Program-made: the position numbers and the translations under genes | From: an uncultured Gemmatimonadales bacterium | GTDB taxonomy: Bacteria > Gemmatimonadota > Gemmatimonadetes > Gemmatimonadales > GWC2-71-9 | Length of the DNA: 64,000 nt | Assembly: GCA_963815325.1 (NCBI GenBank) | Contig: CAWFGG010000002.1 | Location: forward strand, 773,472 to 837,471 | Direction: 5' to 3' | Shown here: piece after piece, positions 23,527 through 54,544 of the stretch | How the letters are laid out: each line of letters opens with the position of its first letter | Position numbering within the stretch: the first letter of the stretch is position 1 | The notes under the pieces: model-generated | What the model was told of the DNA's origin: nothing | Seen by the model: the letters and a program-made list of their open reading frames with translations, nothing else | The model's database searches: none

Positions 23527-23566
23527 CGGCGGCATCGAGCAAACAACCAGACATAGGAGAGGCGTG

Positions 23567-24726: not shown

Positions 24727-24767
24727 GCGGTTCGATCATGATGTATCTGCCCGTATCGGTGGCGTGG

Positions 24768-26835: not shown

Positions 26836-27025
26836 GACGGCTAAACTCCCTCGGTGGAACGGCCTCTTGGGCTCACTCTCGATCGTCAACAACGATAGTC
26901 CGACGGGATCTCGCAACACGATATCACCCCCTGAGCATACCGCTCGACCACTGAACCCGCCATCTTCGTATCGTTCGCGGCGAACACCAAGCGCCGCCAT
27001 CCGTGACCAACAACACCGAGCCATC

Positions 27026-27793
27026 ATGAACGATTTCAATGGAAAGCGCGCCCTGGTGACCGGGGCCACCAGCGGCATCGGCCGGGCCACGGCCAGGCTC
27101 CTGCTGGAGCGCGGAGCCACCGTCGTCGGCACCGCGAGGCGGGAGGAGGCGCTCGATCAGGCCGTGAGCGACCTCGGTGCAGGACAGCGATGGATCCCGA
27201 TCGCGGGAGACCTGACCACGGCCGATTTCCGGACCTCGCTCATCGCGGCGGCACGGCAACAGGCCGGCGGCCTCGACCTCCTGGTCAACGCCGCGGGCAT
27301 CCTGACCACGGGGACTTGGGAGACGACCAGCCTGGACGACTGGGACCGGATGCTCGACATCAATCTCCGGAGCGTGTTCGACCTCACCCGGCTCGCGATT
27401 CCTCTATTGAAGGAAGGCCGGGGCGCAATCGTCAATGTCAGCAGTGTGACCGGAACACGAGCGTTCCCGGGTGTGCTGGCCTACTGCGTGAGCAAGGCGG
27501 GGGTCGATCAGCTGACCCGTTGCCTGGCGCTCGAGCTGGCGGCCGACGGGGTGCGGGTGAACGCGGTCAATCCGGGGGTGGTGCGCACCGAACTCCACCG
27601 CGCCGGCGGGATGGACCAAGCGGCCTACGCGGCCTTTCTGGAGCGGAGCAAAACGACCCACCCGTTGGGGCGGGTGGGCCAGCCGGAGGAGGTCGCGGAG
27701 CTGATCGCGTTCCTCGGATCGTCGCGTGCCGGCTGGATCACCGGGGAGACCATCGCCATCGACGGCGGCCGGGCCCAGACCTGTAACCGCTGA
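27026..27793 (+). CDS. short-chain dehydrogenase/reductase (SDR)
   Basis: MNDFNGKRALVTGATSGIGRA (TGxxxGIG), NAAG, and the YCVSK catalytic motif. ORF 26684..27793 trimmed to ATG 27026. Confidence 0.85.
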   Translation: MNDFNGKRALVTGATSGIGRATARLLLERGATVVGTARREEALDQAVSDLGAGQRWIPIAGDLTTADFRTSLIAAARQQAGGLDLLVNAAGILTTGTWETTSLDDWDRMLDINLRSVFDLTRLAIPLLKEGRGAIVNVSSVTGTRAFPGVLAYCVSKAGVDQLTRCLALELAADGVRVNAVNPGVVRTELHRAGGMDQAAYAAFLERSKTTHPLGRVGQPEEVAELIAFLGSSRAGWITGETIAIDGGRAQTCNR

Positions 27794-27796
27794 GGG

Positions 27797-28351
27797 CTAT
27801 TCGCCCGACTGCTCGACCTGCTCCAGCACTCCGATGTAGGGCAGCGTGCGATACTGCTCGGCGTAGTCCAGGCCGTAGCCCACGACCCATACATCCGGAA
27901 TGTCGAAGCCGAGGTAGTCCACCCGGACGTCGCGCTCGGCGCGGCTCAGCTTCCGCACCAGCACACAGGTGCGGATGGAGGAGGGGTTCCGCGCTTGTAA
28001 CAGGTCGATGAGGTAATGCAGGGTGTTGCCGGAATCGACGATGTCTTCGACGATCAGCACGTGCTTCCCCTCCACCCGATGGCGCAGGTCCATCTCGAGC
28101 CGCACCTCCCCCGACACACTGCCCTTCTCGTAGCTCGACAGCCCGATGAACTCGATCCGCCGCGGAATGGTCAGGCGGCGGGACAAGTCGGCCAGCAGAA
28201 TGAACGACCCCTTGAGCACGCCGACCAGCACCACCTCGCCCTTGGCGCGGTAGTCTCGCGAGATCTGGGAGGCCAGGTCGATCACCCGCTCCCGAATGGT
28301 TTCCTCGGTGATCAGGACGGTCGGTTCCGGTGTCTCGGCGTGGCTTGGCAT
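27797..28351 (-). CDS. hpt: hypoxanthine phosphoribosyltransferase
   Basis: 184 aa. VLVGVLKGSFILLADL and the PRPP motif HVLIVEDIVDSGNTL. Trimmed from ORF 27797..28804. Confidence 0.9.
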   Translation of the reverse strand: MPSHAETPEPTVLITEETIRERVIDLASQISRDYRAKGEVVLVGVLKGSFILLADLSRRLTIPRRIEFIGLSSYEKGSVSGEVRLEMDLRHRVEGKHVLIVEDIVDSGNTLHYLIDLLQARNPSSIRTCVLVRKLSRAERDVRVDYLGFDIPDVWVVGYGLDYAEQYRTLPYIGVLEQVEQSGE

Positions 28352-28442
28352 AGACGGTAAGTTGGCGCCCACCCGGGAAAACGCAATCTCGCCCGAGCGG
28401 CCCGCATGACGCGGCGGCGTGACCACCGTAGATTGCGGCCTC

Positions 28443-29391
28443 ATGCCAACCACCGACGCGGCACACATCGCACGTCGCCGCATCCTGACCGGGCACCTGG
28501 CCCTGAGCGCGGCGCAGGTGGGCTTCGGGCTGTTCCCGGTGTTCGGGATCATCGTGTTCGGGCCGGCCGGCGTGTCGCCGCTCGGGGTCGGCACCTGGCG
28601 CATCGGGGCCGGCGGCGTCATCCTGGGCGCCCTTGCCTTCCTGCTCCATGGCAGGGCCGCCCTGCCCCAGCGCCGCGACCTGACTCGATTCTTCTGGTGC
28701 GCGCTCCTGGGTGTGGTCATCAACCAGGGGATGTTCCTGGTCGGTCTGTCCCGCTCGACGCCGATGAACGCCGGCCTGGTGATGTCGATGATCCCGGTGT
28801 TCACCTTTGCGATCGCCGCGGCCGTGGGTCAGGAACGTTTCAGCGCTCTCCGCGCCGCCGGCGTGCTGATCGCGCTCGTGGGCATGGCACCGCTCTCTGT
28901 TTGGGAATGGCGGTGGGGCCCGCATCTTGGCCCACTACGGCCCGGGCAACCTGCTGATGGTGGGCAACGCGTTGTCCTATTCCGTCTATCTCGTCATCGC
29001 GAAGCCACTGACCGAGCGGTATCCGGCGCTGGTGATCCTGGCGTGGAACTACATGCTGTCGTTCGTGGCGCTGCCCTTCTTCGCCTCCGGGGCCAAGCTC
29101 CTGCCCGACCCCGGCGCGACCAGCGCCTGGTGGTCTTTGGCGTTTATCATCGCGTTCCCGACCGTCATCAGCTACCTCCTGGCCATGATCGGGCTGGCGC
29201 GGGTGCGGGCCTCGACCACCGCGATCTACGTGTACAGCCAGCCGCTGATCGCGGGCATTGCCAGTTGGTTCGTGTTCGGCGAGGAGCCGACGGCCGCCAT
29301 GTTGATTGCGGCCGTGGCATTGTTCATCGGTATCTGGCTGGTGGCGCGGCGGCCTCCCCCGCCCAAGCTTCCCGCTCCCGCAGAAGCCTGA
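28443..29391 (+). pseudogene. DMT/EamA family transporter with an apparent frameshift near 28890-28925
   Basis: The first EamA half is in ORF 28419..29963 (up to ...GVLIALVGMAPL). The second half is in ORF 28927..29391 (HYGPGNLLMVGNALSYSVYLVIAKPL...IGIWLVARR). Confidence 0.8.
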
Positions 29392-30358: not shown

Positions 30359-30880
30359 TTACTCGTCGGATCCGGCGAGCACCGTGATCTGGTCGCGTCG
30401 TACTTGGAGCTGACCGGAGTGCCGAAGGCCACGCCGGGAATGAATCCGGTGACGACCTCGACGGTCGAGGGATCATGAAAGTGATCGGGCTTCGTGTCGG
30501 GATGAGGGTAATAGACGTACCCGCGATAGGTCTTGTCTTCGAGGGTCACTCGGCAGGGGGCAAAGGAGAAATCCTCCGCCGGCGCCTGGCCTGTCCACTT
30601 GACCTGCCGGAAGGTGTGCTCGGGATAGCGGAGCGCGAACGAGAACGGATGCGATGGAAACGTTGAGGGTCGCGGGGTAGAAACTCGAGAAATCGAGCCC
30701 GAGTTCTTGGAAGAAGGGCAGCTGGGTAGTGATGGTGCCTTCGGGGTATGGGCTGTCCTCGCTCATGCCCGACGCGACGCCGTAGCCCTCGACCACCACG
30801 CCTGGGATGGTGACCCACTCGTCATTCTCGGAAGCCATGTCGTCTCCGGGCTCTCCCTCATCCTCAATGGCCATGACCAA
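30359..30880 (-). pseudogene. DUF120 / CTP-dependent riboflavin-kinase-like beta-barrel protein, two apparent frameshifts (~30655 and ~30410)
   Basis: Three frames join into ...VVVEGYGVASGMSEDSPYPEGTITTQLPFFQELGLDFSSFYPATLNVSI | HPFSFALRYPEHTFRQVKWTGQAPAEDFSFAPCRVTLEDKTYRGYVYYPHPDTKPDHFHDPSTVEVVTGFIPGVAFGTPV | QLQVRRDQITVLAGSDE*. The G.V.G.G...TLNV pattern resembles archaeal RibK. Confidence 0.45.
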
Positions 30881-31123: not shown

Positions 31124-33790
31124 ATGCCGACGTTGCGTTTCACCCTGAACGGCACCGAAGTCTCCGTCCCGTACGAGGACGGCATGCACTTCCTCGACGT
31201 GCTGCGGGAGGAGTGCGGCGTTACCTCGGTCAAGGACGGCTGCGCCCCACAGGGCTATTGCGGCTGCTGCGCGGTTCTGGTGGACGACACACCGGTCCTG
31301 GCCTGCCTCAAGAAACCGGCACAAATCGAAGGGAAAGCCGTCACGACGCTCGAAGGCGTGCCGAACGAGCAGCGGGAGGTGCTGTCGCGGGCCTTCGTGC
31401 AGGAGGGCGGCATCCAGTGCGGCTACTGCATCCCGGGCATCGTGACACGGGCGAGCGCGTTGCTCACCCGCGGCCAGGCGGCCGATCGCGATCAGGTCGT
31501 CAAGGCACTGCCCGGACACCTGTGCCGCTGCACCGGGTACGCCCGTATCGTCGACGCGATCCAGACCGCCGGTGAAGCCTGGGACAACGGCGGTGCGTTT
31601 TCGTCCGATCGGCCACGCCGCACCGACTTCTTCGGCGAGCAGTTCGGCCTGTCCCGCACCACCCAGCCGAGCCCAAGCTGCCACGGCGTCGGCAGTGTCG
31701 CCGCCCGCTACCGCGGCGGCGAGCACGCGATGGGCGAGAAGCCCTACGTGGCCGACATGAAGCTCCCCGGCATGCTGCACGGCGCCGTGGTGCTGAGCGA
31801 GCATGCAAGGGCGCGAGTGACCGGCATCGATCCGGCGCCGGCCCTGGCCATGCCCGGCGTGGTGCGGGTGCTCACCGCCCACGACGTGCCCGGCGAGCGC
31901 TCGGTCGGGCTCATCGTCAAGGATTGGCCGGTATTCGTCGCCAAGGGCGAAATCACCCGCTGCGTGGGCGACGTGCTGGCGTTGGTGGTTGCGGACACGC
32001 AGTACCACGCGCGCCTAGCGGCGGACGCGGTCAAGATCTCGTACGAGGTGCTCCAGCCGGTGACCGACCCCGAGGCGGCGCTCTGGCGCCGGACGCGCCC
32101 ACGGGTCCATGAATCCGGCAACCTGCTCGAGACCAGCGCCTTCTCCCGCGGCGACGTCGACGCGGCGCTCGCCACGTCGGCGCACGTGATTCAGCAGCGC
32201 TTCACCACCCAACGGATCGAGCACGCCTTCCTGGAGCCGGAGGCGTGTCTCGCGGTGCCCAACGGCGATCGGCTGACCGTCTATTCCCAGGGCCAGGGCG
32301 TCCACGACGACCAGCTCCAGATCGCGGCGATCCTGGGCATCGACAAGGGACTGATCGACGTCGAGCTGGTGACCAACGGCGGCGCCTTCGGCGGCAAGGA
32401 AGATCTCTCGATCCAGGGCCACACGGCGCTGGCCGCACGGCTGCTCGATCGTCCGGTCAGAACGGTGCTCACCCGCGAGCAGTCGATCCGGATGCATCCC
32501 AAGCGCCATCCGATCACGCTGGACTACACGGTCGGGGCCGACGCCGACGGGAAGCTCACCGCGCTGCGGGCCCGGATCATCGGCGACACCGGCGCCTACG
32601 CGTCGGTCGGGATGAAGGTGCTGGAGCGCGCCGCAGGCCATTCGTGCGGTCCCTATCGCGTGCCCAATGTCGAGGTCGAGGCCAAGACGGTGTACACCAA
32701 CAACCCGCCGTCGGGTGCCATGCGCGGGTTCGGCGCCAACCAGGCGGCCTTCGCCATCGAGGGCGTGCTCGATCTCCTGGCGGAACGGGTGGGGATCGAC
32801 GGCTACGACATCCGCGAACGGAACATCCTGGCGCCGGGCGACGCGTTTGCCACCGGCCAGCGCATGACCGCGAGCTGCGGCATCCGGCAGACGCTCGAGG
32901 CCGTGAAGGACGTGTACAAGAGCGCCAAGTACGCCGGCATAGCGTGCGGCATCAAGAACACCGGCATCGGCAACGGCATGGAAGACGGCTGCCGAGTGAT
33001 CCTCCGGGTGGTCGAGGGCGGGCGGGTGGAGATCGTGACCGGGTACACCGAGATGGGCCAGGGGTTCTTCACGGTGCTCCAGCAGGTGGTGAGCGAGGAG
33101 ACCGAGCTCGAGCCCGACATCATGACCGTCCGGACGGTGAGCGATCCGGCCGTGTTCTGCGGCATGACCACGGCATCGCGCGCGACCGCGCTCGGCACCG
33201 CGGCGGCGCAGATCGCGAGCAGGAAGCTCGCCGCCGACCTCGCAGAGCGCCCGCTCGACCAACTTGCCGGCCGCGAGTACCTCGGCGAATACGTCTGCGA
33301 CTTCACCACCAAGCCGGGCGCCAAGACCGACGACCCCAAGACCCACCTGACCTTCGGCTACGCGACCCAGGTGGTGATCCTGGACGACGAGGGCAAGCTC
33401 TCGCGCGTGGTGGCGGCGCACGACGTGGGCCGCGCGATCAATCCGCTCCAGTGCGCCGGGCAGATCGAGGGATCGGTGCACATGGGCCTGGGCTACGCGC
33501 TGTCGGAAGACCTGCCCTGCACGGACGGGCGGCCGGATTCGCTGCTGCTCCGCGACCTCGGCATCCTCAAGGCCAAGGACACGCCGCAGATCGATGTCAT
33601 CCTGGTCGAGGTGCCGGACGAAGTGGGCGGCTACGGCTCGAAGGGTGTGGGCGAGATCGGCCTGGTGCCGACGGCGGGCGCCGTGGCCGCCGCACTCCAT
33701 GCCTTCGACGGCATCCGCCGCTTCAGCCTGCCGATGATCGACGCGCCGGCAGCCCAGGCCTCGGTCCCCAAATCGCGGCGGGCCTCATAA
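31124..33790 (+). CDS. molybdopterin xanthine-dehydrogenase-family hydroxylase with fused N-terminal [2Fe-2S] domains (Se-dependent XDH / XdhD-like architecture)
   Basis: 888 aa. N-terminus: GCAPQGYCGCCAV...C, then QCGYCIPG...CRCTGY. This is followed by an aldehyde oxidase/XDH Mo-binding body (GGAFGGKE, GAMRGFG, GVGEIGLVPTA). Confidence 0.85.
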   Translation: MPTLRFTLNGTEVSVPYEDGMHFLDVLREECGVTSVKDGCAPQGYCGCCAVLVDDTPVLACLKKPAQIEGKAVTTLEGVPNEQREVLSRAFVQEGGIQCGYCIPGIVTRASALLTRGQAADRDQVVKALPGHLCRCTGYARIVDAIQTAGEAWDNGGAFSSDRPRRTDFFGEQFGLSRTTQPSPSCHGVGSVAARYRGGEHAMGEKPYVADMKLPGMLHGAVVLSEHARARVTGIDPAPALAMPGVVRVLTAHDVPGERSVGLIVKDWPVFVAKGEITRCVGDVLALVVADTQYHARLAADAVKISYEVLQPVTDPEAALWRRTRPRVHESGNLLETSAFSRGDVDAALATSAHVIQQRFTTQRIEHAFLEPEACLAVPNGDRLTVYSQGQGVHDDQLQIAAILGIDKGLIDVELVTNGGAFGGKEDLSIQGHTALAARLLDRPVRTVLTREQSIRMHPKRHPITLDYTVGADADGKLTALRARIIGDTGAYASVGMKVLERAAGHSCGPYRVPNVEVEAKTVYTNNPPSGAMRGFGANQAAFAIEGVLDLLAERVGIDGYDIRERNILAPGDAFATGQRMTASCGIRQTLEAVKDVYKSAKYAGIACGIKNTGIGNGMEDGCRVILRVVEGGRVEIVTGYTEMGQGFFTVLQQVVSEETELEPDIMTVRTVSDPAVFCGMTTASRATALGTAAAQIASRKLAADLAERPLDQLAGREYLGEYVCDFTTKPGAKTDDPKTHLTFGYATQVVILDDEGKLSRVVAAHDVGRAINPLQCAGQIEGSVHMGLGYALSEDLPCTDGRPDSLLLRDLGILKAKDTPQIDVILVEVPDEVGGYGSKGVGEIGLVPTAGAVAAALHAFDGIRRFSLPMIDAPAAQASVPKSRRAS

Positions 33791-33831
33791 GCACGCTCGT
33801 CCCCATTCCGCTCGCGGACCTGGTCTGGCGC

Positions 33832-35922
33832 ATGCGGCGCGAGGCCCAGGCGAGCCAGGCCATCTTCGACCTGCCGGCCCGCAAGTGGTTCATTCCCGAC
33901 GGGGACCTCGACTTCAGCGCCATTCACTTCTCGCGCCGCGCCGCGACACCGGTCGGCCCCGCAGCCGGCCCGCACACGCAGCTGGCCCAAAACATCGTGC
34001 TCGCCTGGCTCGCGGGCAGCAGGATCATCGAGCTCAAGACGGTGCAGGTCAACGACCGGCTGGAGATCCCGCGGCCGTGCATCCACGTTCCGAATATCGG
34101 GTACAACGTGGAGTGGTCGCAGGAACTCAGGGTCGAGGAATCCACCAAGGAATACGCCAAGGCGGTGTTCCTGATCGAGATCCTCAAGGCGACGCGGGCT
34201 TTCGGCATGTTCCCGGACGCCCCCGCGACTCATGCAGCGTTGGATACGGTGTACGACATCAGCGTGGGCTACGACCTCGAAGGCATCCGATCGGACAAGG
34301 TGAACGGGTTCCTCCAGGCGTTGAAACGGCCCAGGGCGTTGTTCGACGAGCTGCGTGGCGAGCTGGCACGTGAATTCCCGGAGTATCGGGACCTCCCACT
34401 GCCGGAGTCCATTTCTGATTGCGTGACCCTGTCCACCTTCCATGGCTGCCCGGCCGACCAGATCGAGGCCATCGGCCGGCACCTGCTGGAGGAGTGCGGG
34501 CTCCACACCATCATCAAGCTGAACCCGACGCTGCTGGGCTACGAGCGCGTGCAGGAACTCCTGATCGAGCGGCTGGGCTACCGGCGCCTCGAGCTTCGCC
34601 AGGACGCGTTCGACCACGATCTCCAGTATGACGACGGCCTGACCATCCTGCGCAACCTCCGCCAGGTGGCGGAGCGCCACGGCTCGACCATCGGGGCCAA
34701 GTTCACCAACACGATGGTGGTGGCCAACAAGGCCGACGTGTTTCCGACCCAGGCCGACCCTTACATGTACGTGTCGGGCCCGCCGCTCCACGTGATCGCG
34801 ATGACGCTGATGCAGCGCTTCCGCGAGGACCTGGGCTTCGAGTTCCCGGTCTCGTTCTCCGCCGGCATTGACGCCAAGAACTTTCCGGCCGCGGTGGCGT
34901 GCGGCATGGTGCCCGTCACCACCTGCACCGACCTGCTGCGCCAGGGAGGCTACGGCCGCTTGCCAACATATTTGCGTGCGCTGGGCCGCGAGATGCAGCG
35001 GGTCGGCGTGACGTCACGCGAAGCGTATGTCTTGGCCGCCCGGGAGCACGGCGCGGAGGCCGCCAAGGAAGCGCTCAAGCTGGTGAGCGTCGATGCCGGG
35101 TTGTGGCACCGCGAAGGGCCCGGCATCGCCAAGACCGCCAGGGAACATCCGGACGACCTGCCCCGAGCGCTCCGGGCGCTGGCGCCCGCGCAAGGACTCG
35201 TTCCCGACGACCTGGTGCTCCTCGCAACCCGGATGGCGGGGCGGCTGAACGGCCGTGACATCGTCCCGCTCCTACCCAGCGACACGCGCTATCACGCCCA
35301 CGCCAACGCCAAGCCGCCGCGCACGATCGACAGCACGCTCGATCTGTACGACTGCATCAACTGCGATCTCTGCATCGCCGCCTGCCCCAACGATGCCATC
35401 TTCGCCTACGAGGCCGCACCGGTCGCGACCGCCACGGTGCGTCTCGAGTCGGACGGCGCGGGCGGCTTACGGCGCGCGCCGGGGCGCGGCTTCACCATCA
35501 ATGAGGCGCACCAGCTCGCGGTGATCGAAGGCGCGTGCAATGAGTGCTCCAACTGCGAGGTGTACTGCCCCGAAGACGGCGCTCCATTCGTGGTGAAGGA
35601 GCGACTGTTCCTGAGCCACGACGATTTCGACCGGGCCCACCAGCTCGACGGATTCGTGCGCGAAGGGGATATTCTCCTGGCGCGGCTGGACGGGCGAAAC
35701 CTCCGGCTCCGGCAGGATCATGCGGCAAATCGAGGAACCGTGACCGGCGAAGGCATCGACCTCCAGCTCAGCCTGGATCCGTTCGAGGTGACCGGCGGCA
35801 CGGTGTCGGATGACGGAGCAATCGATACTGCACTCCTCTGGCGGATGAAGACGGTGTGGGACTCGATCTACGGCGCTACCGCACCAAACGCGCTCAACTC
35901 GATGCACTACGCCGATGAGTGA
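33832..35922 (+). CDS. YgfK-like Fe-S oxidoreductase (DPD-like TIM barrel plus 2x[4Fe-4S]), lacking the GltD-like FAD/NAD(P) module
   Basis: This is the C-terminal two-thirds of ORF 32245..35922. Motifs: ATPVGPAAGPHTQLAQNIV, IELKTVQ, VTLSTFHGCPADQIEAIGRHLLEE, KLNPTLLGYERV, CINCDLCIAACP, CNECSNCEVYCP. Homology appears to begin about 15 codons upstream of ATG 33832 (LVPIPLADL), where no ATG/GTG/TTG exists. Confidence 0.65.
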   Translation: MRREAQASQAIFDLPARKWFIPDGDLDFSAIHFSRRAATPVGPAAGPHTQLAQNIVLAWLAGSRIIELKTVQVNDRLEIPRPCIHVPNIGYNVEWSQELRVEESTKEYAKAVFLIEILKATRAFGMFPDAPATHAALDTVYDISVGYDLEGIRSDKVNGFLQALKRPRALFDELRGELAREFPEYRDLPLPESISDCVTLSTFHGCPADQIEAIGRHLLEECGLHTIIKLNPTLLGYERVQELLIERLGYRRLELRQDAFDHDLQYDDGLTILRNLRQVAERHGSTIGAKFTNTMVVANKADVFPTQADPYMYVSGPPLHVIAMTLMQRFREDLGFEFPVSFSAGIDAKNFPAAVACGMVPVTTCTDLLRQGGYGRLPTYLRALGREMQRVGVTSREAYVLAAREHGAEAAKEALKLVSVDAGLWHREGPGIAKTAREHPDDLPRALRALAPAQGLVPDDLVLLATRMAGRLNGRDIVPLLPSDTRYHAHANAKPPRTIDSTLDLYDCINCDLCIAACPNDAIFAYEAAPVATATVRLESDGAGGLRRAPGRGFTINEAHQLAVIEGACNECSNCEVYCPEDGAPFVVKERLFLSHDDFDRAHQLDGFVREGDILLARLDGRNLRLRQDHAANRGTVTGEGIDLQLSLDPFEVTGGTVSDDGAIDTALLWRMKTVWDSIYGATAPNALNSMHYADE

Positions 35923-37288
35923 GACCATCCTGCTCGGCAACGGGGTGGTGGTGACCCCGCGAATTTCCGCGGATACCGCGCCAACGCACGTTATCCGGAA
36001 TGGCGCGGTCGTCTGGCGCGGCGATCGGATCGTCGGTGTCGGGCCTGAGGCACAGCTTCGCCGAGAGTTTCCCAACGCCGGGTTCATGGACGCCCACGGC
36101 GGCCTGATCATTCCGGGCCTGATCAACCTGCACCATCACTTCTACTCGGCGCTGGCGCGCGGGCTCGACCCCAAGACGCCGATGAAAGATTTCGGCGAGG
36201 TGCTGGACCGGCTCTGGTGGCGGCTCGACCGGGCACTCGACCTGGAAACGGTGCGGATCTCCGCCCAACTCTCAGCCGCGGACTGCATCCGCTCGGGTTG
36301 CACCACGGTGTTCGACCACCACGCCTCGCCCAATGCCATTGCCGGCAGCCTGGACGCGATTGCCGACGCGATGGAGGAGGCCGGCGTGTCGGCAGCGCTG
36401 TGTTACGAAGTCACCGACCGGAACGGCCACGACCAGGCGCAGGCCGGCCTCGATGAGAACCTCCGCTTCGTGCTCCAGCGCCAGCGCCCCCGGATCCGCG
36501 GCCTGCTGGGCCTCCACGCGAGCTTCACCCTGCGGGACGAGACCATGAAGCTTGCAGCCGATCGCCGCCAAGAAGGCATGGGCTGCCATATCCACGTGGC
36601 CGAGGACCCGATCGATGTCGTGGCGTCGCAGGAGGCGTTCGGGCGATGGCCCGTCGAACGGCTCGAGCAGTTCGGGTTGCTCGATTCGCGATGTCTCTTG
36701 GCGCATGGCATTCACCTTAGCGCTGGTGAATACCGGACCATAGCCCATCACGACGCGGTGATAATTCACAATCCCGAATCCAACGCCAACAACGGCGTCG
36801 GTCACTTGAACGTGGTGGACACTGCCGCTCACGGCTGCCTGGTGGGGCTCGGCACCGACGGAATGTCGTCCGCCGTGTTGCGCGCGCTCCGCTTCGCGTT
36901 CCTCACCCACCGCGGCCTCCAGCGCGACCCGTCGAGCGGGTTCCAGACGCTGCCCGACCTGCTCTCGAACAACGCGCGCGTCGCCCGCCGCTTCTTCGAC
37001 GAGCCCCTGCTCGGCGAGCTGGCCATCGACGCGCCGGCGGACATCGCGGTGCTCGATGCGCCGCCACCGACGGCCATCGAAGCGGGCAATGCGTTTGCCC
37101 ATCTGGTGTACGGCGCGAGCGAGGCCTCGGTCCGGCATACCATCGCCCGCGGCCATGTGCTGCTCCAGGACTTCCACCATACCGCCGTCGACACCGAACG
37201 CCTGGCCGCCCGGGCTCGCGAGGCGTCCCCCGCCCTCTGGGACCGGTTTCACGCCTTGCCCTGGGGCACTAGCTTTCTCGGCACTTGA
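35915..37288 (+). CDS. ssnA: SsnA-like amidohydrolase (chlorohydrolase/deaminase superfamily)
   Basis: 457 aa. GLINLHHHFYSALARG (HxH metal site), HVAED, and HGIHL. The start overlaps the upstream stop. Confidence 0.75.
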   Translation: MSETILLGNGVVVTPRISADTAPTHVIRNGAVVWRGDRIVGVGPEAQLRREFPNAGFMDAHGGLIIPGLINLHHHFYSALARGLDPKTPMKDFGEVLDRLWWRLDRALDLETVRISAQLSAADCIRSGCTTVFDHHASPNAIAGSLDAIADAMEEAGVSAALCYEVTDRNGHDQAQAGLDENLRFVLQRQRPRIRGLLGLHASFTLRDETMKLAADRRQEGMGCHIHVAEDPIDVVASQEAFGRWPVERLEQFGLLDSRCLLAHGIHLSAGEYRTIAHHDAVIIHNPESNANNGVGHLNVVDTAAHGCLVGLGTDGMSSAVLRALRFAFLTHRGLQRDPSSGFQTLPDLLSNNARVARRFFDEPLLGELAIDAPADIAVLDAPPPTAIEAGNAFAHLVYGASEASVRHTIARGHVLLQDFHHTAVDTERLAARAREASPALWDRFHALPWGTSFLGT

Positions 37289-37320
37289 TTCCCAGCCACC
37301 GGGCCAGACGGGTACCCCGC

Positions 37321-38782
37321 ATGCCGGCACCAGATAAGACGACCAAGAGCGAGAAGCGCCGCCGCGCCGTCGCGACGTGTCGCGAGCGCGGCGTCTTGAT
37401 CCCGACGTTCGCTCAGATGCGCGATCCGGACACCATCGACCCGGTCATCACGGCCAAGCTCCGCGGCATCGACATGCAGGCGGTGCATCCGCTCAATCTG
37501 TTCCGCATCACCTGGCACAACGATCCGCAAGAGCGGCGGCTTCGGACCGGTCAACATGTTGGAGCTCCCGCCCGTCCTGACCGGCGTGCCGGCCCGCATC
37601 GTGGGGCTGGTGGGCGAGTACTTCCCGACCGGCGCCCACAAGGTGGGTGCTGCGTTCGGTTGCCTGGTGCCGCGGCTCGTGTCCGGCGAGTTCGATCCCA
37701 CCACCCAGCGCGCCGTCTGGCCCTCCACCGGCAACTACTGCCGCGGCGGCGCGTTCGACAGCGCGCTCCTGGGTTGCCATGCGGTGGCCATCCTGCCGGA
37801 GGAGATGAGCCGAGAGCGGTTCGAGTGGCTGGAGCAGATCGGCGCCGAGGTCATCAAGACGCCGGGCGGCGAGAGCAACGTAAAGGAGATCTTCGACGCC
37901 TGCGCCGAGATCCGGAGGACCAGCCCCGAGGCGGTCATCTTCAACCAGTTCGACGAGTTCGGGAACTACCTGTGGCATTACGGCGTGACCGGCCCGGCCG
38001 CGGAGGAGGCGTTCCGGCGCCTCAAGCGGCCCGGCGATCGGTTGGCCGCATGGGTCGGCGCCACCGGCTCGGCCGGTACGCTGGCGACCGGGGACTATCT
38101 GAAGCGCGCCTTTCCCGGTTGCGCTATCGCCGCCGCCGAGGCGCTCCAGTGCCCTACCTTATTAGAGGCGGGGTTCGGGGGGCACCGAATCGAGGGCATC
38201 GGCGACAAGCACGTGCCCTGGATCCACAACGTGCGGAACACCGACCTGGTGACGGCCATCGACGACGAGGCCACCATGCGCCTCATGCGGCTGTTCAACG
38301 AGCCGGCGGGCCATGCGGTGCTGGCGCGCTACGGCGTGCCCGACGATACCGTGTCCCAGCTTCCCCTCCTCGGCATTTCGAGCATCTGCAACCTGCTGGC
38401 CGCCATCAAGACGGCCAAGTATTACGAGTTGGGCGAGCACGACATGTTGTTCACGTCGTTCACCGATTCGGTCGATCTCTACCGGACCCGCCTGGTCGAG
38501 CTCCAGGAACAGCATGGACCCTACACCGAGCTGGCCGCGGCCATCGACTTCGAGCGCTACCTGTTGGGAACCGCGACGGATCATTTGCGGGAGCTGCGTT
38601 ACACCGACCGGAAGGCCATTCACAACTTGAAGTACTTCACTTGGGTGGAGCAGCAGGGCAAGACCGCCGAGGAGCTCGACCGGCTGTGGAGCCCGGCGTT
38701 CTGGCAGGAACTGGCCGGGCAGCTGCCGGGGCTGGACGAGCAGATCCGAGCCTTCAACAGCGACACCGGGCTGGGCAGCTAG
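37321..38782 (+). pseudogene. fold-type II PLP-dependent enzyme (cysteine-synthase-like) with an apparent frameshift near 37530
   Basis: The N-terminal ~70 aa (MPAPDKTTKSEKRRRAVATCRERGVLIPTFAQMRDPDTIDPVI...FRITWHNDPQE) are in frame 37285. They continue in frame 37556 (SGGFGPVNMLELPPV...PTGAHKVGAAFG...STGNYCRGGA...GATGSAGT). Confidence 0.7.
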
Positions 38783-38821
38783 CGGGTCCGGTCCGAGACA
38801 ATACGACGGAGACACGACAGC

Positions 38822-40072
38822 ATGACCCAAGTGAGTAAGCAGGCTCTGGCCGACGCGCGGCAGTACGAGGCCGACATCGTCGCCTTTTTGCGGGAGATGA
38901 TCGCCATCCCCGCCGAGAGCCTGCAGGAGGGCGAGCGGTGCGAGCGGGTGCGGAAGGAATATCAGACGCTGGGCTTCGACGAGGTCTTCTTCGATACCCT
39001 GGGGAACGTCATCGCCAAGGTCGGCGACGGCCCGCTCACCATCCTGATGGACGGCCACATCGATTGCGTGGGCGTGGGCGACCGCGGCGCGTGGGAGTTC
39101 GACCCGTTCAAAGGCAAGCTCGAGGACGGCAAGGTGTGGGGCCGTGGCGCGGTGGACGAGCTGCCGGCCGTGGCCTGCATGGCCTACGCCGCCAAGCTGC
39201 TCATGGAACGCGGCCTGCCCAAGGACGTGACGCTCTACTTGTCGGCCACGGTCATGGAAGAGGACTGCGACGGCTATTGCCTGCTCCATATGATTGAAAA
39301 GGAGAACATCCGGCCCGACGTGGTGATCATCGGCGAGCCCACTGATCTCAACGTCTATCGCGGGCACCGGGGCCGGGTCGAGATCATGATCCGCACCAAG
39401 GGCGTGTCGGCCCATGCGGCGCACAGCGAGCGCGGGGTGAACGCGCTCTACAAGGCGGCGCGCATCATGCTCGACATCGAGGCGCTGAACGAGCGGCTCC
39501 CGGTGGACGACTTCCTGGGCAAGGGATCGATCGTGGTGTCGTCGGTCGAGTGCACCACCGCGTCGCTCAACGCCGTGCCGGACAGTGCCACGATCTATGT
39601 CGACCGGCGAATGACCGCGGGCGAGACGGTCGACGGTGTGCTGGCCGAACTCAAGGCGCTGCCGCACTTGGGCGACGCCACGGTCGAGGTATCGAATTAC
39701 GACGTGACCAGCTGGCTCGGCGAGCGGGCCCATCAGGAGAAGTTCTACCCCACCTGGGTCATGCCCGAGGACCATCCGCTGGTGCAGGGTGTTGCGCACG
39801 CGGTCGAAGCGGTGCTCGGTACCAAACCTAAGATTTCCCGCTGGGGGTTTTCCACCAACGGCGTCGCCAGCATGGGCCGGCACGGCATTCCGACTGTGGG
39901 GTTCGCGCCGGGGCTGGAGGAGCTGGCCCACACGACCCAGGAGTGGGTGTCGGTGGAAGACTTGGTGAAGGCCACCGCGGTATACAGCGTCATCCCAGGA
40001 ATATTGGCCGAACGTAAGGATCAACTCTTGGCGGCTCCGCAGGGCGGCGGGGCGGAGAAGGTCGGGCGCTGA
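38822..40072 (+). CDS. ygeY: YgeY-family M20 metallohydrolase
   Basis: 416 aa. Motifs: MDGHIDCVGVGD, GRGAVDE, MEEDCDG, GEPT, RGHRGRVE, VSAHAA. Confidence 0.75.
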   Translation: MTQVSKQALADARQYEADIVAFLREMIAIPAESLQEGERCERVRKEYQTLGFDEVFFDTLGNVIAKVGDGPLTILMDGHIDCVGVGDRGAWEFDPFKGKLEDGKVWGRGAVDELPAVACMAYAAKLLMERGLPKDVTLYLSATVMEEDCDGYCLLHMIEKENIRPDVVIIGEPTDLNVYRGHRGRVEIMIRTKGVSAHAAHSERGVNALYKAARIMLDIEALNERLPVDDFLGKGSIVVSSVECTTASLNAVPDSATIYVDRRMTAGETVDGVLAELKALPHLGDATVEVSNYDVTSWLGERAHQEKFYPTWVMPEDHPLVQGVAHAVEAVLGTKPKISRWGFSTNGVASMGRHGIPTVGFAPGLEELAHTTQEWVSVEDLVKATAVYSVIPGILAERKDQLLAAPQGGGAEKVGR

Positions 40073-40076
40073 GCCT

Positions 40077-41051
40077 ATGGATTCAAAACTCAAGGGCCGC
40101 GATTTCATCACGACTCAGCACTGGACCGTCGACGAGCTCGAGACCCTGTTCGCCCTGGCGGCGGAGCTCAAGGCTGCCAAGCGCAGCGGGAGGTCGACGC
40201 CAGTGCTTACGGCCAAGACGCTCTACATGATCTTCTTCGACGCGTCGACCCGCACCCGCAACTCGTTCGAGACCGGCATGACCCAGCTGGGTGGGCACGC
40301 CATTTACCTCTCGCCCGACAAGATGCAGATCAGCCACGGCGAGAACGCGCGCGACACGGCCAACGTCCTGTCGCGCTACGGCGACGGCATTGCCATCCGC
40401 CACTGCGCCTACGGCGAGGGCAACGCGTACCTGAACGACGTGGCCAAGCACGCCAGCATTCCGCTGCTCAACATGCAGTGCGACGTCTATCACCCGTGCC
40501 AGATCCTGGCCGACTACCTGACCATCCGGGAGAAGTTCGGCGACACCAAGGGGCTCAAGCTCGGCGTGTCGTGGACCAGTGCCCCGAACTACGTCCGGCC
40601 GCTCTCGGTGCCGCAGAGCCTGATCCTGATGATGCCGCGGTTCGGCATCGACGTGACGCTGGCCTACCCGCCCGAGTTCAAGCTCATGCCGCACATCGAG
40701 GCGCAGGCCAAGGCCAACGCCAAGGCGGCGGGGACCAAGTTCGAGATCTCCCATGAGTTCGACGACGCGTTCCGCGACGCCGACGCGGTGGTCCCCAAGT
40801 CGTGGGGCCCGTTGGTCACCACCGAGGACACGAAGCAGGGCTTGGCCCTGATCGAGAAGTACCCCACCTGGCGCACCGGCATGGATCACATGCGGCTCGG
40901 CAAGAAGCACCTGATCTACATGCATCCCCTCCCGGCCGACCGCGGCCGCGAGGTGACCGACGAGGTGATCGACGGGCCGCAGTCGGTGGTGTACGACGAG
41001 GCCGAGAACCGGCTCCATGTGCAGAAGGCGCTCATGGCGCTGACCATGTAG
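40077..41051 (+). CDS. ygeW: YgeW-like knotted carbamoyltransferase (short form)
   Basis: 324 aa. Motifs: FFDASTRTRNSFE, HGENARDTA, NMQCDVYHPCQ, LSVPQSL, VPKSWGP, YMHPLPADRG. These parallel the E. coli YgeW motifs as I recall them. Confidence 0.7.
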   Translation: MDSKLKGRDFITTQHWTVDELETLFALAAELKAAKRSGRSTPVLTAKTLYMIFFDASTRTRNSFETGMTQLGGHAIYLSPDKMQISHGENARDTANVLSRYGDGIAIRHCAYGEGNAYLNDVAKHASIPLLNMQCDVYHPCQILADYLTIREKFGDTKGLKLGVSWTSAPNYVRPLSVPQSLILMMPRFGIDVTLAYPPEFKLMPHIEAQAKANAKAAGTKFEISHEFDDAFRDADAVVPKSWGPLVTTEDTKQGLALIEKYPTWRTGMDHMRLGKKHLIYMHPLPADRGREVTDEVIDGPQSVVYDEAENRLHVQKALMALTM

Positions 41052-41063
41052 CGTGGTGACGTC

Positions 41064-42297
41064 GTGAGCGGCTTCCGGTTTCGCTGCACCGAGTGCGGCA
41101 CGGCGTATGGCGAGGACGACGTCCGGCTCACCTGTCCCGCGTGTGCCGGCAAGCAGGAGCCCGGCGGCGTCACCCGCGGCGTGCTCGAGGTGGAGATCGA
41201 CGAGCTGCCGACCCGTTGGCCCGATGTACCTCCGTCCCATCCCGATTTCCTGACCGCGTTCCTGCCGATTCCGTCGGCCGAGCATGTGCCGCCGCTTCCG
41301 GTCGGCGGGACGCCGCTACTACCGGTGCCCGAATTGCGTCGTGCACTCGGCATGCCGCGGCTCTGGCTCAAGGACGATACCCGAAACCCCAGCGGATCGA
41401 CCAAGGACCGGGCATCGCTTTTGGTGGTGGCCAAGGCCAAGCAGTACGGCTACCACACCGTGGCCGCGGCGTCCACGGGCAATGCCGCGACCGCGCTCGC
41501 CGCCGTGTCGGCCGCCGCCGGTACCCGAGCGATCCTGTTTGTGCCGGCCGCAGCACCCGAGGCCAAGCTGGTGCAGATGTTGAGCTATGGGGCCACCGTC
41601 TTGCCCATCGACGGCAACTACGACGACGCGTTCGAGCTGTGCCTCGCGGCCTGTGAGGCGTTCGGCTGGTACAACCGGAACACGGCGCTCAATCCGTTCA
41701 CCATAGAAGGAAAGAAGACCGCGGGTCTCGAGATCGCGCTGAGTATGGCGCCCGACGTGCCGGACGCGGTGCTGGTGCCAACGGGCGACGGGGTCATCCT
41801 GTCCGGCGTGGCCAAGGGATTCGCCGACCTGGTGCGATGCCGGGCTGATCGATCGCGTGCCGCGGATGATCGCGGTCCAGCCCGAGGGCGCGGCGGCGAT
41901 CGTCACCGCCCTGAAGGAAGGCAGCGAGACCATCACACCCGTGCCGGGTGCACACAGTGTGGCCGATTCACTCACGGTGGAGGCGCCGCGAAACGCGCTT
42001 CAGTGTCTCCGGGTCATTCGCGCCTCGGGCGGGAGCGGCGTCGCCGTACCCGACGCCGCTATCCTCGAGGCCATTCCCCGCCTCGCCGGCCTCAGCGGCG
42101 TCTTCGCTGAGCCGTCGGCGGCGGCGGTGTTGGCGGGGCTGGAGGTGGCGGTCGAGGAAGGATTGGTGGAGCAAGGCGAGCGCGTGGTGTTGCTGGTGAC
42201 GGGCACCGGGCTCAAGGACGTAGCAGCGGCGGCGCGAGCGGTGGAGCGGCCGGTACCGATTCCACCGACGCTCGAGGCTGTGGCGGCGAGGATCTGA
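41064..42297 (+). pseudogene. threonine-synthase-like PLP enzyme with N-terminal zinc ribbon, apparent frameshift near 41838
   Basis: FRCTECGTAY...CPACAG, then SGSTKDRAS (PLP Lys), STGNAA. ORF 41064..42110 derails after GFADLVR. ORF 41857..42297 continues (D)AGLIDRVPRMIAVQPEG...LLVTGTGLKD. Confidence 0.75.
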
Positions 42298-44875: not shown

Positions 44876-45058
44876 ATGCCAAAGGCGCCACAGGCGGAGT
44901 TTCTGACCATCGCCGCCATCCGGAAGTCGCGCGGCCGGCGAGAAATCGAGTACCTGTTCAACGAGAAGCAACAGATCTTCACCTTCCGGTCGAAATCCAA
45001 GACGGCCGCGGCAGCGGCGGAGCGGCTCGAGGAGGCTTCGAGAAGAAGTGGCCGGTAA
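44876..45058 (+). CDS. small basic protein (60 aa) translationally coupled to the glutaminase gene
   Basis: ATG preceded by AGGAGA. Sequence MPKAPQAEFLTIAAIRKSRGRREIEYLFNEKQQIFTFRSKSK. Its stop (45056-45058) lies 11 nt inside the next ORF. Confidence 0.5.
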   Translation: MPKAPQAEFLTIAAIRKSRGRREIEYLFNEKQQIFTFRSKSKTAAAAAERLEEASRRSGR

Positions 45059-45830
45059 GGCCCGGCTCGAAATGACGAAGGGCTTCATCCGGCGCATCTC
45101 GAGGTCGACCGCCAAGGAAGTCGCTCAATTCGAGCGCAAGCGCACCGTCCTGGCCGATGCCGCACGGCCGCGCCGGATCGAGGTCGCCAAGATCGATCCG
45201 ACCACCTTCAACATCGTCGACCACTACCTCAAGCACCCGGTCTTCCGGCTCTGCCGCCGCGTGGTGCCGAGCTATCAGAGCGCCAAGACCATCTTCGACT
45301 TCTGCGCCAAACAATCGTGTCACCTGCCGGGGCCGTACGACATCTCACCCTGTATCCCGTTCCAGTACGTGCCGGACGGCTGCTACGCCCGGGCGCACAA
45401 GATGCGGTGGATCATCACCACCCGGTACCGCTACTGCTGCGACAAAGTGTTCAGCTTTGCCAATCAAGACAACGACCGGCTCGCGGTCCAGGCCAACAAG
45501 TGGGGCGGCTGCTGTATCACGTGGTGGTATCACGTGGCGCCGCTCATCCGCGTGCGCATCCGGTTGTCCAAGCTTCGCAACCTGAGCATCGTCCTGGCCA
45601 TGGTGATCGATCCCAGCATGTTCGACAAGCCGGTCCTGCTCAGCACCTGGCTGTCGGCCCAGGAGAACGCCGCCTGCCATCCCAACGCCCACGTGTCGAT
45701 GTACTCGATCCAGCCAGGCTCGGCCTATTGGCCGGCCAGCTACGACGGCACCACGTTCGGCACCGATCCGACCTACACGTTGACCGATGGGACACTCACC
45801 TCGTACCGGAACCTGGTGTCCTGCCCGTGA
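45048..45830 (+). CDS. protein-glutamine glutaminase (protein deamidase) family, no signal peptide
   Basis: SPCIPFQYVPDGCYARAHKMRWII (catalytic Cys), GGCCITWWYHVAPLI (His) and MVIDPSMF (Asp) align with my recollection of the Chryseobacterium proteolyticum enzyme (SPCITFRYPVDGCYARAHKMRQIL, CCVAWSYHVAILV, IIDPSLF). The N-terminal ~95 aa are polar and basic, with no hydrophobic leader. Confidence 0.75.
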   Translation: MAGKARLEMTKGFIRRISRSTAKEVAQFERKRTVLADAARPRRIEVAKIDPTTFNIVDHYLKHPVFRLCRRVVPSYQSAKTIFDFCAKQSCHLPGPYDISPCIPFQYVPDGCYARAHKMRWIITTRYRYCCDKVFSFANQDNDRLAVQANKWGGCCITWWYHVAPLIRVRIRLSKLRNLSIVLAMVIDPSMFDKPVLLSTWLSAQENAACHPNAHVSMYSIQPGSAYWPASYDGTTFGTDPTYTLTDGTLTSYRNLVSCP

Positions 45831-48180: not shown

Positions 48181-48193
48181 CTTCGCTTCCCCT

Positions 48194-49537: not shown

Positions 49538-49892
49538 CGGTTCTTGTGAGTGGAGCGGTGTGTACGCCAGGAGCGGGACCGACCCGAGAAGGGCGGTCAG
49601 CAGCAGGGGGAGACGAATGGGGGTGCTCCTCAGTTCAGGGAAAGGTGTTCGGCCAAACCCTGTCGGGACGGAATATTCCTCTTGGCACAGGGGATCGCAA
49701 GCAAACCCAAGGCCTCGCCCACTCCAGAGGGCTCAGCGCCATGACCGACGGATTGGCGCCCTACCCTCTTGGGTTCAGCGGGAAGCAGGTCTCCTGACGT
49801 CCTTGCGCCCGGAGCCGATGGATAGTTACTTTGCAAGACAAAGTACTTGGTAAATGGTAACCCTGCAATCGAATCGTCGGGAGGCCCCGGGT

Positions 49893-54475: not shown

Positions 54476-54544
54476 CGCGCCACCCTGAGCGGGACACCCG
54501 CGCCGCCCGCCGTCGGTACGTGTGCCGCGGGGAGGGGGACGGGT

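Follow-up and report, generated by a model that had tools for sequence, protein, structure and literature searches.

A seven-gene operon of an uncultured Gemmatimonadales bacterium as a probable variant of reductive uric-acid catabolism with two unusual pyridoxal-phosphate enzymes

Gene content and layout of the locus

The 64,000-nucleotide stretch analysed here (the window; positions 773,472 to 837,471 of contig CAWFGG010000002.1, assembly GCA_963815325.1, from an uncultured Gemmatimonadales bacterium; G+C ~65%) carries seven co-directional, tightly packed plus-strand genes at window positions 31124–42297, labelled G1 to G7, which are related to the xdhD-ygfK-ssnA / ygeY-ygeW neighbourhood of E. 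coli. Neighbouring genes either overlap by 1–8 nt or are separated by gaps of 4–39 nt. A preliminary description of this DNA had already reported the seven genes and their families, and the genes do lie at its coordinates; it passed over the broken frames of G4 and G7 and the ATA at the start of G2, which are treated below. The features of the locus are as follows.

31124–33790, plus strand: G1, fused 2x[2Fe-2S] and molybdopterin hydroxylase of the XdhAC or 'Se-dependent XDH' (xanthine dehydrogenase) type, 888 aa
About 33787–35922, plus strand: G2, short-form YgfK, about 710 aa
35915–37288, plus strand: G3, SsnA amidohydrolase, 457 aa
37321–38782, plus strand: G4 (PLP1), 486-aa pyridoxal-phosphate (PLP) fold-type II enzyme of the cystathionine beta-synthase/cysteine synthase (CBS/CysK) clade; frame broken by one extra base
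37527..37528, no strand: single-base insertion (extra C beside GATC), +1 shift of the G4 frame
38822–40072, plus strand: G5, YgeY-family M20 hydrolase, 416 aa
40077–41051, plus strand: G6, short-form YgeW-like carbamoyltransferase, 324 aa
41064–42297, plus strand: G7, threonine synthase (ThrC)-like PLP fold-type II enzyme with an N-terminal zinc ribbon, 410 aa; frame broken by one extra base
41837..41839, no strand: single-base insertion, +1 shift of the G7 frame

Families were assigned by scoring each protein against curated hidden Markov models (HMMs; TIGRFAM/NCBIfam), with scores given below in bits against the model cutoff, and by Pfam domains. None of the proteins was sent to an unrelated subfamily in this way, and G1, G3 and G5 pass the cutoffs of their families. 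Searches of the 64 kb with E. coli proteins (tblastn) found no homologue of HyuA, YqeA, YgfM/XdhB, YqeB, YqeC, MocA, YgfS/T, UacT or XanQ, and for YgeX at most a weak partial match to G7 (22% identity over 152 aa), in agreement with the absences listed in the preliminary description (YgeX, hydantoinase, carbamate kinase, YgfM and YqeB/YqeC/MocA); SelD is likewise missing from the window. Rfam detected no riboswitch or other RNA, either window-wide at the gathering score or upstream of G1 at E <= 1, and a scan for promoters and terminators gave no signal exceeding the shuffled expectation.

The reference pathway

The E. coli cluster is arranged as ygeW-ygeX-ygeY-hyuA-yqeA / ygfK-ssnA-ygfM-xdhD (Li et al. 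2025, 10.1101/2025.05.19.654654). Its pathway, taken in the preliminary description to be only partly assigned, was reconstituted in 2025 for E. coli, C. sporogenes and C. difficile as the 2,8-dioxopurine pathway (10.1101/2025.05.19.654654; 10.1101/2025.04.24.650524; PMC12990295). Urate is converted to 2,8-dioxopurine by XdhD-YgfM, or by XdhAC in clostridia; YgfK reduces 2,8-dioxopurine and SsnA opens the ring to give ureidomethylhydantoin; HyuA yields 2,3-diureidopropionate; YgeW (by phosphorolysis, with ATP formed via YqeA) and YgeY strip the ureido groups in a disputed order; and YgeX converts 2,3-diaminopropionate to pyruvate (10.1101/2025.05.19.654654; 10.1101/2025.04.24.650524). The action of YgfK on 2,8-dioxopurine is coupled to that of SsnA (10.1101/2025.05.19.654654). 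With respect to electron supply, XdhAC does not use NAD(P)H (Liu et al., 10.1101/2025.04.24.650524), and C. difficile UacX contains FMN and no FAD domain, with ferredoxin proposed as its donor (Li et al., 10.1101/2025.05.19.654654). A commentary names three open points: which ureido group is cleaved first, the stereochemistry, and what supplies XdhAC with electrons (PMC12990295). Gemmatimonadota, Acidobacteriota and threonine- or cysteine-synthase-like enzymes go unmentioned in both primary reports (10.1101/2025.05.19.654654; 10.1101/2025.04.24.650524).

The upper module: G1, G2 and G3

G1 passes the cutoff of TIGR03311 over its full length (904.3 against 830.45 bits; profile positions 2–845 of 848) and combines the Pfam domains Fer2_2, hammerhead (Ald_Xan_dh_C), MoCoBD_1 and MoCoBD_2, with no FAD domain; an FAD subunit to serve it (XdhB/YgfM) was not found in the window. 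By comparison, the score of G1 against the XdhD family TIGR03313 is only 215.7 against 1101.9 bits. Residue Glu606 of XdhD was considered as a marker of regiospecificity and rejected, since it falls inside an XdhD-only insertion that is missing from both G1 and XdhA and is uninformative for G1. From the operon context, the role proposed for G1 is that of a urate 6-dehydroxylase (2,8-dioxopurine dehydrogenase).

G2 fails the full-length YgfK cutoff (TIGR03315, 383.8 against 835.3 bits), matching profile positions 4–397 and the C-terminal Fe-S part, and aligns to E. coli YgfK only at residues 7–405 (37.5% identity) and 905–1012 (tblastn). No alignment to YgfK residues 406–904 and no Pyr_redox Pfam match was obtained for a GltD-like FAD/NAD(P)H module in G2, the loss of which the preliminary description had recognised. 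Fer4_7, Fer4 and Fer4_8 domains at residues 518–596 and two copies of CxxCxxCxxxCP correspond to 2x[4Fe-4S], giving an overall architecture of FMN barrel resembling dihydropyrimidine dehydrogenase (DPD) and dihydroorotate dehydrogenase (DHOD), linker, 2x[4Fe-4S] and C-terminal beta domain. The top PDB folds for the AlphaFold2 model (AF2; mean predicted local distance difference test score, pLDDT, 71.5) are pig DPD (7lju) and DHOD B (1ep3). G2 has therefore kept the FMN/substrate barrel and lost the NAD(P)H-FAD entry module. More than 120 homologues of 685–745 aa are among the matches listed. The linker that stands in for the GltD module (residues about 370–502, window 34900–35300) is Ala/Leu/Arg-rich and all-helical in the model. 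A sequence search of the PDB with G2 gave only compositional TAL-effector (repeat) matches with 0 significant stretches, which were discarded as spurious.

G3 passes the SsnA model NF005540 (456.2 against 444 bits), lies slightly under the older TIGR03314 (432 against 455.5 bits), and shares 35% identity with E. coli SsnA over 445 aa. G1, G2 and G3 are contiguous and overlapping, and thus bring a Mo dehydroxylase, a flavin/Fe-S reductase and SsnA side by side, the content of an upper module.

Ureido cleavage: G5 and G6

G5 passes both YgeY models (NF009555, 476 against 321 bits; TIGR03526, 452.6 against 321.5 bits) and shares 45% identity with E. coli YgeY. Next to it, so that YgeY and a carbamoyltransferase form an adjacent ureido-cleaving pair, G6 lies below every curated cutoff, both those of ornithine carbamoyltransferase (OTC; subfamily NF001986, 277.8 against 306 bits; TIGR00658, 262.3 against 280.85 bits) and those of YgeW (NF005538, 219.5 against 453 bits; TIGR03316, 208.7 against 500 bits). 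Among PDB structures, its neighbours are P. furiosus OTC (1pvv) and E. coli YgeW (3q98). G6 is 72 aa shorter than the E. coli protein (about 70 aa in the preliminary description), without the four YgeW insertions and without both terminal extensions. It keeps the YgeW second-substrate motif SW..(S/A)P.Y.(K/R)PLSVPQ (VSWTSAPNYVRPLSVPQ in G6, MTWAYSPSYGKPLSVPQ in YgeW), and has H(P)LPAD at the site of the YgeW HCLPAD. The ornithine-binding motifs of OTCase are SMG and HCLP; the G6 sequence has HPLP and no SMG motif. Because neither motif is present, G6 is not an OTCase, and we read it as a short-form YgeW-like enzyme; nor is it an NCBIfam YgeW equivalog. The name YgeW-like, used in the preliminary description, is therefore justified by motif and neighbourhood and not by equivalog score. 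The role proposed for G6 is to release carbamoyl phosphate from a ureido group by phosphorolysis.

Two PLP enzymes in the place of YgeX

G4 contains a PALP domain (66 bits) and has the fold and PLP-binding residues of CysK and CBS, though it reaches none of their HMM cutoffs (TIGR01139, 88.1 against 350.95 bits; TIGR01136, 84.5 against 344.15 bits; TIGR01137, 66.4 against 510.25 bits). The PLP lysine (HK107VG), the Asn loop (STGNY) and the Gly-rich loop are invariant in the family, and extensions of about 90 aa at the N-terminus and about 130 aa at the C-terminus are conserved; intact 486-aa homologues (P0001–P0003) are 95% identical. CBS, CysK and beta-cyanoalanine synthase are the nearest solved structures by sequence (E = 3e-23), and the G4 model (pLDDT 66) best matches CBS/CysK folds, including yeast CBS 6c2h, at E about 1e-12 and 21–26% identity. 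The CBS/CysK clade catalyses beta-elimination and beta-replacement on beta-substituted alanines, by analogy the chemistry that the breakdown of diaminopropionate or albizziin would need. No informative gene fusion involving G4 was found; long matches proved to be chimeras with parts of an ABC ATPase, HerA or a metallo-beta-lactamase, or read-through into a second PALP gene.

G7 carries an N-terminal CxxC...CxxC zinc ribbon, is borderline for the ThrC model TIGR00260 (168.9 against 167.1 bits) and falls below NF006050 (267.4 against 303 bits). Its alignment with four solved ThrCs covers the full length (E = 1e-48 to 1e-56), with the PLP lysine and the STGN loop conserved. The Arg of NPxR(I/L)EGQKT, invariant in the four solved ThrCs, is replaced by T, M or L in G7 and its 28 cluster-linked homologues (29/29), and all 29 of these cluster-linked members carry an RNT motif. 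Because the replaced residue (R160 in Thermus ThrC) is what we take to be the binder of the substrate phosphate, G7 is unlikely to be a threonine synthase.

Both proteins are also far from YgeX/DpaL. Against NF006058, G7 scores 48.1 against 276 bits and G4 gives no match, and the tblastn matches to E. coli YgeX (E = 5e-4 and 3e-5 over 46–109 aa) are trivial. G4 and G7 are thus not YgeX orthologues, as was claimed for the two fold-type II PLP enzymes in the preliminary description. They stand where YgeX would be expected. Their genes are adjacent in most lineages and, in the Gemmatimonadota type of operon, are parted only by those for YgeY and the carbamoyltransferase. Like YgeX/DpaL, both are PLP enzymes of fold type II with the same terminal place in the pathway logic, at the level of a C3 amino acid. 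Unlike CysK and CBS, G4 stands in a genomic context of ureide/purine catabolism and not sulfur assimilation; unlike ThrC, G7 is embedded in a urate operon and combines the replaced Arg, the RNT motif and the zinc ribbon. As a guess of low confidence, G4 might be the beta-eliminating lyase and G7 an accessory enzyme for stereoinversion or for a second isomer; stereoinversion comes into question because a D configuration has been proposed for the intermediates, against the L preference typical of the clade.

Frameshifts and the G2 start codon

Neither G4 nor G7 is an intact open reading frame (ORF) in the window; each is split over two frames, as is visible in translation. Two close relatives were available for comparison: L001, a short contig from a JGI metagenome (90% nt identity) in which both PLP genes are intact (486 and 410 aa), and L084, an 859-kb contig from a sister assembly (91% nt identity). 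The only uncompensated gaps in G4 and G7 relative to L001 are an extra base at 37527/8 and another at about 41838, and both are unpaired gaps relative to L084 as well. G2 has ATA where its relatives (L002–L006, L008) have ATG, in the context TCATAAGC, which would otherwise be the usual ATGA stop/start overlap. These relatives start M-x-x-L-x-P-(I/V)-P-F-x-D-L; the first in-frame ATG of G2, at 33832, lies 14 codons downstream of the conserved start, and it is there that the public gene call begins (P0271, 696 aa, 100% identical). TFG53629.1, which falls into the same 90%-identity cluster as P0271, carries the label Gemmatimonadales, in keeping with the origin of the window; exact-sequence look-ups with P0271 and with the window's YgeY (G5) gave no record.

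Taken at face value, three lesions in seven genes would describe a decaying pseudo-operon, in which the frameshifts and the lost G2 start are real and the pathway is non-functional in this genome; the missing hydantoinase and carbamate kinase of sister operons (see below) and the position of the insertions, neither of which is inside a long homopolymer, point the same way. However, like indels occur in unrelated neighbours. A GcvT-family aminomethyltransferase gene (23561–24726, plus strand), nearest to the dimethylsulfoniopropionate (DMSP) demethylase DmdA (NF009133, 383.7 against 410 bits), has one base missing at about 24636, with its C-terminus (...VVVKPFVDPKKDVPKS) in the other frame and its GCV_T_C domain cut at 58/80. 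In an M28/DUF4910 peptidase gene (24736–27132, minus strand), the frame shifts at about 25057, an unpaired insertion relative to L084, whose gene encodes 684 aa, and the true C-terminus (...LVEVGAVAWK, then stop) lies in the other frame. An EamA/DMT transporter gene (28406–29391, plus strand) is split into ORFs of 183 and 154 aa by an extra base at about 28896 in a GGGG/CCC context. The EamA and M28 shifts rest on translations and on the comparison with L084; Pfam gave no match to the N-terminal half of EamA or to the C-terminal piece of the peptidase. In addition, a small ORF upstream of G1 (30362–30880, minus strand), for which no family was found, matches a 159-aa L084 protein in two frames (segments of 91% and 53% identity), which suggests another indel at about 30650.

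Window positions 24636, 25057, 28896, 37527 and 41839 are all unpaired indels relative to L084, in which the GcvT-like gene (386 aa) and EamA (a single protein of 315 aa) are intact. L084 is also a long-contig assembly, from a close relative, and is itself broken at entirely different sites, in its SDR, SsnA, PLP1 and ThrC-like genes. The dN/dS ratios between the window and L001 are 0.077 for G4 and 0.118 for G7, not above those of intact neighbours (0.08–0.16), and the source contig, at 838 kb, is typical of long-read assemblies. Given the shifted frames of unrelated genes, the intact copies in relatives and the low dN/dS, the extra bases in G4 and G7 and the ATA in G2 are most probably errors introduced by noisy long-read assembly, and a decaying pseudo-operon is very improbable. 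Programmed +1 frameshifting in G4 and G7 was considered and rejected: there is no slippery or stop context, relatives have no extra base, and unrelated genes are hit in the same way.

Synteny and distribution

The order XDH, short YgfK, SsnA, PLP1, YgeY, carbamoyltransferase, ThrC-like is repeated in L002, L003, L005, L006 and L008, with 59–82% amino-acid identity, and again in at least 15 metagenome contigs retrieved via G7; overall, many genomes of Gemmatimonadota and Acidobacteriota and many metagenome contigs share it. Because the order recurs in this manner, the operon is real and not a chance arrangement. The comparison of neighbourhoods, with the genes syntenic in related genomes, thus bears out the view of the preliminary description that the locus is a non-enteric variant of the xdhD-ygfK-ssnA / ygeY-ygeW neighbourhood.

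The G4 family extends further, to at least 594 species-representative genomes at 58–95% identity. The best 80 of these are all metagenome-assembled genomes (MAGs), from Gemmatimonadota, Acidobacteriota (Holophagae, Thermoanaerobaculia), Chloroflexota, Elusimicrobiota, Planctomycetota, Verrucomicrobiota, Myxococcota, Acidimicrobiia, Bacteroidales, Ignavibacteriota, Halanaerobiales and others. Co-occurrence was evaluated for 39 G4-family loci flanked by 6 kb or more in each direction, and 31 of them have at least one partner gene: a carbamoyltransferase in 21, ThrC-like in 20, HyuA-like in 19, XDH in 13, SsnA and carbamate kinase in 12 each, YgeY in 11, YgfK in 10, and YgeX in a single locus. 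The accompanying YgeW-type enzymes are long in some loci and short in others. Among 16 G4-centred loci with an XDH gene, only one (L046) has a yqeC homologue within 10 kb.

Sister operons also contain genes that are missing from the window. An allantoinase/hydantoinase-like gene (TIGR03178, 359.9 against 357.85 bits) lies between those for YgfK and SsnA in L003, L005, L008, L112, L113 and L162; a carbamate kinase gene (NF009007, 345.7 against 266 bits) follows the ThrC-like gene in L002, L089, L093, L130 and others; and an XdhB-like FAD subunit is encoded in L005. L046 and L050 encode UacT-like permeases that share 57% identity with the urate permease of E. coli. Hydantoinase and carbamate kinase are therefore optional modules of the operon, of which the window holds a minimal form, and the lack of these two or of the FAD subunit is not what sets the variant apart, contrary to the preliminary description.

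Many Chloroflexota G4 loci have a true dihydropyrimidinase nearby (TIGR02033, 522 against 393 bits), with no XDH or SsnA within 10 kb. Directly downstream of the G4-family gene in 21 Chloroflexota loci (L025:11552–12139 and 20 more) is a gene for a conserved 195-aa protein without a Pfam or NCBIfam match, often with a true dihydropyrimidinase a few kb beyond it. In L084 (5681–6508, minus strand), a PF04199 'cyclase' (a kynurenine-formamidase-like amidohydrolase) is encoded just upstream of XDH; considered as a stand-in for the hydantoinase, it was rejected on account of its absence from the window and nearly all other loci.

Relation to known clusters and proposed pathway

The operon shares with the E. 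coli cluster homologues of YgfK (37.5% identity), SsnA (35%), YgeY (45%), YgeW (37%) and a Mo hydroxylase, and the same logic from Mo enzyme to reductase, ring-opening amidohydrolase and ureido cleavage (10.1101/2025.05.19.654654). In contrast to E. coli, its Mo enzyme is of the XdhAC/TIGR03311 and not the XdhD/TIGR03313 type, with no YgfM FAD subunit; its YgfK is without residues 406–904 and its YgeW-like enzyme is 72 aa shorter; and HyuA, YqeA, YgeX, YqeB, YqeC and MocA are missing, with two other PLP enzymes present instead. The clostridial versions are XdhAC (DOPDH)-YgfK-SsnA-HyuA-YgeW-YgeY-YgeX in C. sporogenes and XdhD-UacX-UacY in C. difficile (10.1101/2025.04.24.650524; Li et al. 2025). 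Like C. sporogenes XdhAC, G1 is a fused Fe-S and Mo enzyme with no FAD subunit, and like C. difficile UacX, G2 is an FMN reductase without an FAD module, an equivalent reduced architecture. G2 nevertheless differs from the latter in being a truncated YgfK and not a PydA/UacX homologue, and the operon differs from that of C. difficile in keeping a carbamoyltransferase and having no UacY hydrolase. Unlike the clostridial version, it has YgeX replaced, and it comes from a GC-rich environmental member of the Gemmatimonadales and not from a gut Firmicute.

Taken together, the operon is likely to be a Gemmatimonadota/Acidobacteriota version of reductive (oxygen-independent) uric-acid/purine catabolism by the 2,8-dioxopurine pathway. 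From gene content and context, we infer its substrates, its electron donor and how the two PLP enzymes share their work. G1, with a Mo cofactor, two 2Fe-2S clusters and no FAD subunit, would take the 6-oxo group off urate to give 2,8-dioxopurine. G2, with its FMN barrel and two 4Fe-4S clusters, would reduce the pyrimidine ring with electrons from a low-potential carrier such as ferredoxin, not NAD(P)H, and G3 would open the reduced 2,8-dioxopurine ring to ureidomethylhydantoin. A hydantoinase, encoded in sister operons and not here, would then produce 2,3-diureidopropionate, from which G6 would phosphorolyse one ureido group and G5 hydrolyse the other. This would leave a C3 amino acid, either 2,3-diaminopropionate or albizziin, to be converted to pyruvate and ammonia via G4 and/or G7.

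Several points weigh against this assignment. The absence of hydantoinase and carbamate kinase from the 64 kb leaves a gap after SsnA and no ATP-yielding step, and no transporter, regulator, electron-carrier or Se-cofactor maturation gene was found adjacent to the operon. The G1 family is named xanthine dehydrogenase by NCBI, and regiospecificity cannot be read from its sequence; G6 fails every curated carbamoyltransferase cutoff; no computed result shows the substrate of G4 or G7, and the G4 model is of only moderate confidence (pLDDT 66). If the indels were real, three of the seven operon genes would be damaged in the source genome.

Some of these points could instead reflect degradation of another N-heterocycle, with G1 an ordinary hydroxylase acting on (hypo)xanthine by another route, on another oxopurine, or on a pyrimidine via a Pyd-like route, and with the PLP enzymes acting on a different amino-acid end product. 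The xanthine dehydrogenase name of TIGR03311 and the lack of YgeW equivalog status for G6 would both fit this alternative, as would the G2 fold, nearest to the pyrimidine enzymes DPD and DHOD, and the Chloroflexota G4 loci near a true dihydropyrimidinase, without XDH or SsnA within 10 kb; the absence of YgeX could also mean that the product is not diaminopropionate. However, SsnA, YgeY and the XdhAC-type enzyme pass the cutoffs of families defined by this neighbourhood, the coupled action of YgfK and SsnA is on 2,8-dioxopurine, the permease homologues of related clusters are 57% identical to a urate permease, and G6 keeps the distinctive second-substrate motif of YgeW. We therefore consider a different heterocycle unlikely, and urate degradation through 2,8-dioxopurine the preferred assignment. 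Where the preliminary description allowed for a different substrate or electron route, a difference in substrate is not indicated and a difference in electron route is plausible; its reading of the operon as a distinct variant is partly supported, being right in outline.

By analogy with the clostridial enzymes, a ferredoxin-type donor may serve both G1 and G2. Adjoining the operon in L002 (17443–19790, minus strand; GCA_964533185.1) is a two-gene 2-oxoacid:ferredoxin oxidoreductase (POR/PFOR domains), which could recycle electrons from pyruvate to ferredoxin for both reductive steps, although this is a hint only. In the window, the region 54056–62057 (plus strand) holds three response-regulator/histidine-kinase genes, four group-3b-like NiFe hydrogenase genes and a Cache/HAMP histidine kinase gene. 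The beta, gamma, delta and alpha subunits of this NiFe hydrogenase/sulfhydrogenase (NAD(P)-coupled type), 14 kb downstream of the operon, all score under their equivalog cutoffs; the enzyme is a possible source of reductant, again as a hint only, and is not linked to the operon.

Other genes in the window

A hypoxanthine phosphoribosyltransferase gene (27797–28351, minus strand; TIGR01203, 201.5 against 150 bits), belonging to purine salvage, lies 2.8 kb upstream of the operon on the opposite strand and has the same placement in L084. Further away are genes for an L-piperidine-6-carboxylate dehydrogenase (19777–21354, minus strand; NF050084, 781.8 against 730 bits), an aldehyde dehydrogenase of lysine catabolism, and a protein-glutamine glutaminase-like protein (Gln_deamidase_2; 45048–45830, plus strand). 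A pair encoding a cytochrome c and a three-domain multicopper oxidase (46978–49732, minus strand) fits an organism also able to respire.

Implications for reductive uricolysis

In 2025 the reductive urate pathway was presented as characteristic of selected anaerobes, those of the gut among them (PMC12990295). With the operon and its relatives, a recognisable form of the pathway extends to Gemmatimonadota, Acidobacteriota, Chloroflexota, Planctomycetota and further environmental lineages. Liu et al. set identity thresholds in their metagenome screen, for example 63% for YgeW and 50% for YgeX, and asked for four or more of seven proteins above them (10.1101/2025.04.24.650524); the screen would probably score these genomes as negative. 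In the neighbourhood analysis of Li et al., any PF00291 protein was counted as "YgeX" (10.1101/2025.05.19.654654), which makes that analysis blind to the distinction between the two PLP families and YgeX.

What is new here is an apparently undescribed terminal PLP module, together with short YgfK and YgeW forms, in environmental phyla. Our more tentative proposal, which may well prove wrong, is that G4 and the Arg-less zinc-ribbon G7 constitute a new two-enzyme terminal module that replaces YgeX in a dozen or more environmental phyla. A possible arrangement of this module is a stereoinverting enzyme with an L-specific beta-lyase, or else a lyase that eliminates urea directly from albizziin. 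The variant bears on the points named in the commentary (PMC12990295), namely which ureido group is cleaved first, what configuration the intermediates have and what donates electrons to XdhAC-type enzymes in the cell, and it offers two highly conserved, uncharacterised PLP enzymes and a natural minimal YgfK for study of the reductase. If the proposal is true, then, with a ferredoxin-fed short YgfK, reductive uricolysis would be a widespread trait of soil and sediment bacteria that homology screens based on gut proteins have missed.

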